Assembly (NCBI RefSeq): GCF_030384885.1
Contig: NZ_CP128613.1
Length of the DNA: 64,000 bases
Direction: 5' to 3' (one strand)
Source: Escherichia coli
GTDB lineage: Bacteria > Pseudomonadota > Gammaproteobacteria > Enterobacterales > Enterobacteriaceae
Shown here: positions 55,767 to 56,483 of the stretch, piece by piece
Position numbering within the stretch: the stretch's first letter is position 1
How the letters are laid out: every line of letters starts with the position of its first letter
Translations under genes and position numbers: made by a program
Notes under the pieces: generated by a model
The model's input: only the letters and a program-made list of their open reading frames with translations
What the model was told of the DNA's origin: nothing
The model's database searches: none

Positions 55767-56483
55767 ATGGAATGGTTAAGTGAGATTCGCACACTTCGGG
55801 AGAACGTACCTGTCGGTATCCAGGCTGCCAGGCGTTTGTTAGAGAAGACGGGTGGTGATGTTGATGAAGCCATTAAGTTGTTTCATATTGATCAAATCAA
55901 TATATTGACGGCAAAAGCAGACGTCAGTCATCAGGAAGCAGAGACTGTTCTGCTGGAGACAAACTATGATATTGCAGAAGCTCTACGGCGTATTGATGAA
56001 CAGCGCTATACACTGACGGAATTGATTTTGCGTAAAAATAAGGATACCGGAGATGCTTTAAGTAACATAGAATTAGCAATAGCATATGAATGGAATCTGA
56101 CATGCCAATTCTGGTTTGGTTTTAAGGCATTCCAGTCGCTACCTCCACAATTACAAGCCTTTATGCTGGTATGTGAATGGCGTAACTATTGGGGATGGGA
56201 AGGGCTGGATAGTGCGTTATATTATGAGATAGAAAATGTCCCCCAACAATTACAGGTAGTAGGCTTAGATGAAATGGCTGAAGTTATTGTTGTGGCGAGA
56301 AATCGTTATGATGAGTTAAGAGTACAAGGCAAAGACCATAATAACATCATTAAAGATGATAAATTTAAAAAATTTATGAAGCACTGTGAACAACTGGATA
56401 GTGAAGCCGACGCTATATTACTGCAATTTGTAAAGGATAATATTGAGATTTTCCCACGTCGCCACAACGGACACGATTTATAA
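55767..56483 (+). CDS. Hypothetical protein with two N-terminal UBA-like helical repeats and a Trp-rich C-terminal domain (possibly the yfbN-position gene)
   Basis: 238-aa ORF with AAGGA 7 nt upstream of the ATG and TATAAT about 40 nt upstream. Residues about 7-39 and 44-76 follow the three-helix pattern of EF-Ts N-domain / NAC-alpha UBA-like modules. No family assignment could be verified. Confidence 0.7.
   Translation: MEWLSEIRTLRENVPVGIQAARRLLEKTGGDVDEAIKLFHIDQINILTAKADVSHQEAETVLLETNYDIAEALRRIDEQRYTLTELILRKNKDTGDALSNIELAIAYEWNLTCQFWFGFKAFQSLPPQLQAFMLVCEWRNYWGWEGLDSALYYEIENVPQQLQVVGLDEMAEVIVVARNRYDELRVQGKDHNNIIKDDKFKKFMKHCEQLDSEADAILLQFVKDNIEIFPRRHNGHDL

Follow-up and report, generated by a model that had tools for sequence, protein, structure and literature searches.

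The gene yfbN of Escherichia coli is predicted to encode a protein of two modules, in which a five-helix double UBA-like module is joined to a DMP19-like domain. The allele considered here lies in a window of 64,000 nt, which is the whole stretch of DNA analysed (contig NZ_CP128613.1, assembly GCF_030384885.1) and that matches the chromosome of E. coli strain 2013C-4282 at 100 %. Tentatively, and with a likelihood judged a little short of even, YfbN is read as a non-enzymatic blocker of the immunity type, whose variable C-terminal domain would bind the target. In the literature searched that mentions yfbN, its fold and function are nowhere described, and no description of the combination of a UBA-like pair with a DMP19-like domain was found. 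Among the genes of E. coli K-12 that are still uncharacterised, yfbN now has a concrete two-module structure and is offered a testable function, that of an immunity-like toxin blocker with its specificity set by the variable DMP19-like domain. Removed as well is the link to the deubiquitinase ElaD that an original prediction made from the window's sequence had raised, an attractive one but false. The features of the gene and its product are as follows.

55767–56483, plus strand: coding sequence of the yfbN family, 238 aa; a divergent allele of K-12 YfbN.
55776–55889, plus strand: UBA-like repeat 1, residues 4–41; EF-Ts N-domain-like; pattern LR..P.G...A..LL..T.GD...A..LF.
55890–56006, plus strand: UBA-like repeat 2, residues 42–80; p47 / Dcn1 / NAC / UBALD type.
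56007–56456, plus strand: conserved linker helix (YTLTE[LR]IL) and predicted DMP19-like all-helical domain, residues 81–230; motif EW..Y..WEG[FL]..A; ends in FP.
56067–56425, plus strand: hyper-divergent block inside yfbN, codons ~101–220; DNA identity to K-12 58–70 %.

The 238-aa ORF (open reading frame) at 55767–56483 is present exactly as first described. RefSeq annotates the product in E. coli 2013C-4282 as a hypothetical protein. Protein identity is 70 % to K-12 YfbN (b2273, ‘uncharacterized protein’) and 98 % to an E. fergusonii protein. The ratio of nonsynonymous to synonymous divergence (dN/dS) against the K-12 allele is 0.23; yfbN is therefore a real gene under purifying selection.

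An AlphaFold2 model of the window protein was built from a 74-sequence alignment and reached a pLDDT of 96.2 and a pTM of 0.88. Its N-terminal helices span residues 4–13, 18–27, 32–51, 55–64 and 69–80, and are followed by nine further helices. Each repeat is modelled as a compact three-helix bundle of ~40 residues, as expected of a UBA-like fold. The helix at 32–51 is common to both, the last helix of repeat 1 running into the first of repeat 2. The repeats are homologous to each other, since profile–profile comparison (hhalign) aligns the two halves in register with a P value of 8e-6, and the double module arose by internal duplication. The two N-terminal three-helix repeats had been proposed beforehand, with peptides that map to residues 7–40 and 44–76, and the confident bundles, the in-register self-alignment and the structural matches given below confirm that they are real rather than a pattern due to chance.

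When the PDB was searched with a profile of the N-terminal 80 residues, UBA-like chains predominated and made up all top matches (E 0.006–1). Repeat 2 matched the UBA domain of FAM100B (E 0.0056), and repeat 1 matched EF-Ts (1efu_B, E 0.018), aligned at residues 7–43 (EF-Ts residues 6–42). Further matches were to the MurQ C terminus, Dcn1, p47, NAC, TNK1, TAP, p62, FAF1 and OTUD7A. Family models gave weaker signals with the single window sequence: UBA_4 at E 0.034 and UBA_HYPK at E 0.24 in Pfam, and the NAC model of NCBIfam at E 4e-4 over residues 42–76. Among the 74 relatives, UBA_4 is matched by 22 at E ≤ 0.1 and by none at E ≤ 0.001. One relative matches UBA_8 at 8e-5, and three carry a precomputed PF14555 match. 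A word-indexed protein search with the N-module profile returned Escherichia fragments only. The likeness to EF-Ts N-domain, NAC and HYPK modules noted originally is borne out by the model, the fold search and the profile matches taken together. Repeat 1 shares with the EF-Ts TS-N domain both the three-helix fold and the pattern L-R...G.G....(K/A).L....GD...A...L; the rest of EF-Ts is absent from YfbN, and all E-values lie above family thresholds. The NAC and HYPK UBA domains are weak matches to repeat 2.

The best solved match to the module as a whole is the UBA domain of the human kinase TNK1. Foldseek, run with the YfbN model against the PDB, placed TNK1 (7tcy_A) first, over 77 columns that cover both repeats at 27–30 % identity. 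The similarity is marginal (Foldseek E 0.04; profile hidden Markov model (HMM) E 0.08–0.17; TM-score 0.52; root-mean-square deviation 4.4 Å), and the HMM matches, too, extend across both repeats. The TNK1 UBA domain has five helices, of which the long central third one joins ‘two UBA-like motifs’ (PMC10312729). The solved structure (PDB 7TCY, 1TEL fusions) agrees with the YfbN model in this arrangement and in its length of ~77 residues. Unlike YfbN, the TNK1 domain belongs to a eukaryotic kinase tail and binds polyubiquitin, whereas the module of YfbN is bacterial, N-terminal and packed on a DMP19-like domain.

This match bears on the earlier suggestion of a role alongside ElaD, in which the UBA pair would recognise ubiquitin of the host or a ubiquitin-like protein of bacteria. 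The TNK1 domain binds polyubiquitin with a nanomolar dissociation constant (PMC10312729), repeat 2 is similar to UBA domains that bind ubiquitin (those of p47, Dcn1 and FAF1), and by direct reading the loop that follows helix 1 is hydrophobic-Gly-hydrophobic in both repeats (VGI; family consensus TGV). In bacteria, however, UBA-like domains have other partners, as the EF-Ts N-domain and the MurQ C terminus show, and no secretion signal or effector context was found in any of the searches. The two neighbouring genes that matter here are the following.

56478–57053, minus strand: gene of the SMI1/KNR4 (SUKH) family, 191 aa; Pfam SMI1_KNR4 E 0.0065; convergent with yfbN.
59262–60431, minus strand: elaD, 389 aa; 91 % identical to K-12 ElaD.

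The distance from yfbN to elaD is 2.8 kb. elaD was placed too near in the original prediction, at two genes' distance; three genes (the SUKH gene, yfbM and yfbL) and a pseudogene fragment intervene, and elaD is on the strand opposite to yfbN. Co-occurrence, which had been named beforehand as a check, fails. yfbN is carried by 978 of 5426 complete E. coli genomes (18 %) and elaD by 4473 of them (82 %), so that at least 3495 have elaD without yfbN. The syntenic locus of Superficieibacter has yfbN, a YfbP homologue, yfbL and yfbK and is devoid of elaD. A tblastn search with ElaD over the loci compared found it in the two E. coli loci only, and near none of ~30 relatives in Bacteroidota, Pseudomonas and other Enterobacterales. 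The family is mostly found in environmental Bacteroidota and Pseudomonas. YfbN is not a partner of ElaD, and the joint ubiquitin-binding role is very improbable.

The C-terminal part had been described as rich in Trp and Tyr and free of any recognisable motif. The first point is correct (5 Trp and 6 Tyr in 158 residues, 7 %). The second is superseded by the model, in which this part takes the all-alpha fold of DMP19. In a Foldseek search of the AlphaFold database, full-length relatives came first, and behind them came matches to the C-domain under the names DUF4375 or ‘DMP19 C-terminal domain’. One relative (P0128) is a DUF4375 protein by its UniProt name and matches the YfbN profile at E 1e-11. 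Sequence identity of the C-domain to DMP19 itself (NMB0541; PF14300, DUF4375) is 13 %. The Pfam DMP19 model has no match in the window protein and reaches E 0.043–0.049 at best in a few relatives. DMP19 was not retrieved from the PDB by sequence searches with the C-domain profile or with P0128, and a word-indexed protein search with the C-domain profile returned no protein carrying PF14300. The domain is therefore labelled DMP19-like by its modelled fold, membership of the sequence family being unproven. YfbN differs from DMP19 in carrying the domain together with a UBA-like pair and in having no XRE-type regulator adjacent to its gene.

DMP19 is a very acidic DNA mimic with an isoelectric point (pI) below 4.5 and a DNA-like row of carboxylates (PMC3384305). 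By analogy, the C-domain of YfbN might titrate HU or another nucleoid protein, or a transcription factor. Against this stands its charge, with a pI of 5.1 in the window protein and a family range of 4.2–9.3 (median 5.3). With such a spread, DNA mimicry does not appear to be a property of the whole family. In addition, no transcription factor is a conserved neighbour, and the hyper-variable C core would suit a fast-changing partner better than a conserved nucleoid protein. A DNA-mimic role is accordingly considered unlikely. Across the 74 relatives the only nearly invariant residues are L10, R11, L25, L62, W138, E145 and F229. These seven positions, with no enzyme signature among them, speak for a binding protein rather than an enzyme.

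Divergence is very unevenly distributed along yfbN. Residues 1–80 are 91 % identical to the K-12 protein (dN 0.04, dS 0.26), whereas residues 81–238 are 59 % identical (dN 0.25, dS 1.35). For the flanking genes the values against K-12 are dN 0.00 and dS 0.17 in nuoN, and dN 0.013 and dS 0.31 in yfbM. DNA identity is ~92 % upstream of the hyper-divergent block and 85 % downstream, and the edges of the block are sharp. When compared with the window allele, all other Escherichia alleles are 85–95 % identical in residues 1–92 and 51–55 % identical beyond; among Escherichia alleles including that of K-12, the C core is 51–59 % identical. The high dS (1.35 against 0.26) and the sharp-edged drop in identity suggest a much deeper history for the DMP19-like core than for the rest of yfbN, and the core looks like a swapped or imported cassette. 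The allele pattern fits a variable specificity domain carried on a constant module.

An exhaustive HMM search found 177 representative clusters, mostly full-length proteins of ~240 aa. Relatives occur in Chitinophaga, Hymenobacter, Pedobacter, Emticicia, Bacteroides, Pseudomonas and Leminorella. The family is scattered patchily across Enterobacterales, Pseudomonas and Bacteroidota, and most of it is found in Pseudomonas and in Bacteroidota of soil and water. Some relatives share the double-UBA module alone and have a different C-domain. The module, whose best solved match is a human kinase domain, is thus a mobile one in bacterial genes, some of them amid immunity genes. yfbN itself is an accessory, AT-rich and horizontally moving gene with its own promoter region and without an operon partner.

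Several loci, the window locus with its SUKH gene among them, place members of the family, or proteins that share only the double-UBA module, in the company of genes of the immunity type. The order in Hymenobacter negativus is Imm51, DUF2262, YfbN and a small ORF. This one genome has two YfbN paralogues (loci L010 and L011), the one just described and a second, which is located ahead of an ABC ATPase and near a gene like the rifampin ADP-ribosyltransferase (Arr-ms). In another Hymenobacter and in one metagenome contig, the yfbN relative is located in long runs of small co-directional unannotated ORFs; ankyrin, DUF4274 and a resolvase are represented in these runs, as is a protein longer than 1390 aa. 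A double-UBA-only protein of Capnocytophaga lies within the array Ank – x – SMI1_KNR4 – DUF4272 – x – [this protein] – SMI1_KNR4/HEAT – x – DUF4279. In the Capnocytophaga metagenome contigs concerned (L037/L038, 2342–12863) there are ~13 small co-directional genes, the double-UBA protein is of 205 aa, and a PLD/SNF2 helicase-like gene follows the array. Another contig (L039, 1–7654) encodes a TcA-like ABC-toxin component exceeding 2900 aa and an LRR protein of 805 aa, and 28 bp after these comes a 217-aa protein with the double-UBA N terminus; this is also where the contig ends. ‘Heterogeneous polyimmunity loci’ of this kind have been described by Zhang et al. 2012 (PMC3482391).

The only functional hint for yfbN comes from a toxin-blocking assay with the K-12 allele, over-expressed. 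The TIC/TAC preprint took a set of blockers, pNT3-yfbN and pNT3-yfbO included, into a validation assay in which RcaT, the toxin of retron-Sen2, is over-expressed, and according to the text all selected blockers relieved its toxicity (bioRxiv 10.1101/2020.06.22.160242). Elsewhere, yfbN has been found up 2.8-fold on SlyA over-expression (PMC5797941), and a yfbN knockout raised the yield of GFP and hardly that of asparaginase (PMC7376861).

Some of these results could also be read as a link to translation, with the EF-Ts-N-like repeat 1 docking on EF-Tu or another GTPase and YfbN modulating translation as an adaptor. In one Chitinophaga genome the gene is found 14 bp after era and der, the knockout raised the yield of recombinant GFP (PMC7376861), and translation genes are among the RcaT blockers of the same screen (bioRxiv 10.1101/2020.06.22.160242). 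The era/der context, however, is not kept in other Chitinophaga or in any other genus, and the effect of the knockout differed between the two reporter proteins (PMC7376861). The marginal E-values and the accessory, AT-rich nature of yfbN, present in 18 % of complete E. coli genomes, likewise argue against such an adaptor, which is judged improbable. A DNA mimic, an EF-Tu adaptor and a ubiquitin-like reader are each possible, and none of them is favoured.

The reading as an immunity-type blocker would have YfbN be a cytoplasmic, non-enzymatic binder made of two rigidly joined modules and acting stoichiometrically. The target bound and neutralised by the variable DMP19-like domain would be a toxin or a protein that binds nucleic acids. 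The conserved UBA-like pair would provide a contact that stays constant, be it to a host factor or internal to YfbN. The closest parallel is offered by orphan immunity proteins of polymorphic-toxin systems, which like YfbN are small, cytoplasmic and without catalytic motifs and have a patchy, mobile spread. Immunity-like as well are the swapped variable domain, the location next to or within arrays of SUKH, Imm51, Ank and HEAT genes, the one relative of the module encoded after a Tc-type toxin gene, and the blocking of a toxin by the over-expressed K-12 allele in the preprint. YfbN differs from orphan immunity proteins in that it falls in no described Imm family, has no known cognate toxin and has many loci without toxin or immunity neighbours. 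RcaT, moreover, acts as the effector of a retron and does not belong to the secreted polymorphic toxins.

Several observations weigh against an immunity-type role. The RcaT result comes from an over-expression screen in a preprint, was obtained with a different allele (C-domain 59 % identical) and is possibly indirect. No cognate toxin gene adjoins yfbN in the window locus or in most other loci, and the SUKH neighbour is convergent with yfbN and not co-transcribed. Company of the immunity type, noted locus by locus, is found in some loci and not in others, and in many the neighbours are mundane, for example era/der, SusC/D or resistance-like genes. The window YfbN has no match in PADLOC and no significant match in PHROGs, and the sequence membership of its C-domain in Pfam DMP19 is borderline (E 0.04–0.05, in a few relatives only). 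If the blocker role were confirmed, YfbN would represent a new fold combination among immunity proteins, and the appearance of K-12 yfbN in the retron-toxin screen would be explained.

The constant module might also be given a more specific part. As a bacterial counterpart of a TNK1-type ubiquitin reader, it could attach to a protein of the beta-grasp or ubiquitin-like kind, or else to a conserved host factor, for instance EF-Tu, and tether interchangeable inhibitor domains (DMP19-like or others) to their site of action. This idea has a small likelihood; if true, immunity or anti-toxin proteins would gain a new modular class, in which the UBA pair is the constant contact.

The ORF clustering of 28 loci revealed no neighbour conserved beyond close relatives. 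YfbP of K-12 (L002, 9117–9962) and of Superficieibacter (L004, 8801–9649), 61 % identical to each other, adjoins yfbN in both and has TPR-like repeats in its middle. A SUKH-like N terminus was considered for YfbP and found no support in BLASTP and PDB searches, which gave TPR matches only. Likewise, a 157-aa Hymenobacter neighbour considered as YfbM-like proved not to be so on comparison. An M28 peptidase, adjacent to YfbN in both Enterobacterales and one Hymenobacter locus, was dropped as a link, as the similarity is that of M28 peptidases in general. NCBIfam gave nothing for ten unannotated neighbour proteins.

In the window, yfbN is located directly downstream of nuoN and the nuoN terminator. 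The upstream elements are the following.

55638–55673, plus strand: intrinsic terminator of nuoN, from the terminator scan; upstream edge of the AT-rich yfbN islet.
55726–55731, plus strand: TATAAT, a −10-like hexamer, by direct reading.
55756–55761, plus strand: Shine-Dalgarno-like AAGGAA, by direct reading, 5 nt ahead of the ATG.

Both the TATAAT at 55726–55731 and the Shine-Dalgarno sequence AAGGA(A) at 55756 had been credited to the gene as its own, and both are found by direct reading. The terminator and promoter scan upstream of yfbN gave no good −35 and did not return the TATAAT as part of a full sigma-70 match. GC content is 40 % in yfbN, 34 % in the 191-aa SUKH gene and ~57 % in nuoN, and the first two form a small AT-rich islet. 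The SUKH gene, named ‘SMI1/KNR4 family protein’ by RefSeq in related genomes, overlaps the yfbN stop by 6 bp. In K-12 only a ~266 bp 3′ remnant of it is left, between yfbN and yfbM; the yfbN–SUKH pair is therefore probably ancestral at this locus.

The minus-strand order downstream of yfbN is the 191-aa SUKH gene, yfbM (DUF1877), yfbL (M28 peptidase), a pseudogene fragment and elaD. The fragment, a partial ‘hypothetical protein’ pseudogene in RefSeq, is at window positions ~59063–59155 (L001, 12464–12556), between yfbL and elaD; yfbK, which occupies that position in K-12, is missing from the window strain. Also missing are yfbO and yfbP, between nuoN and yfbN. elaD is located in an AT-rich patch of its own (~35 % GC), apart from the yfbN islet. 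The nuoN gene (window 54167–55624) shows a dS of 0.166 and a dN of 0 against K-12, which is high for two E. coli strains, and strain 2013C-4282 may belong to a divergent Escherichia lineage.
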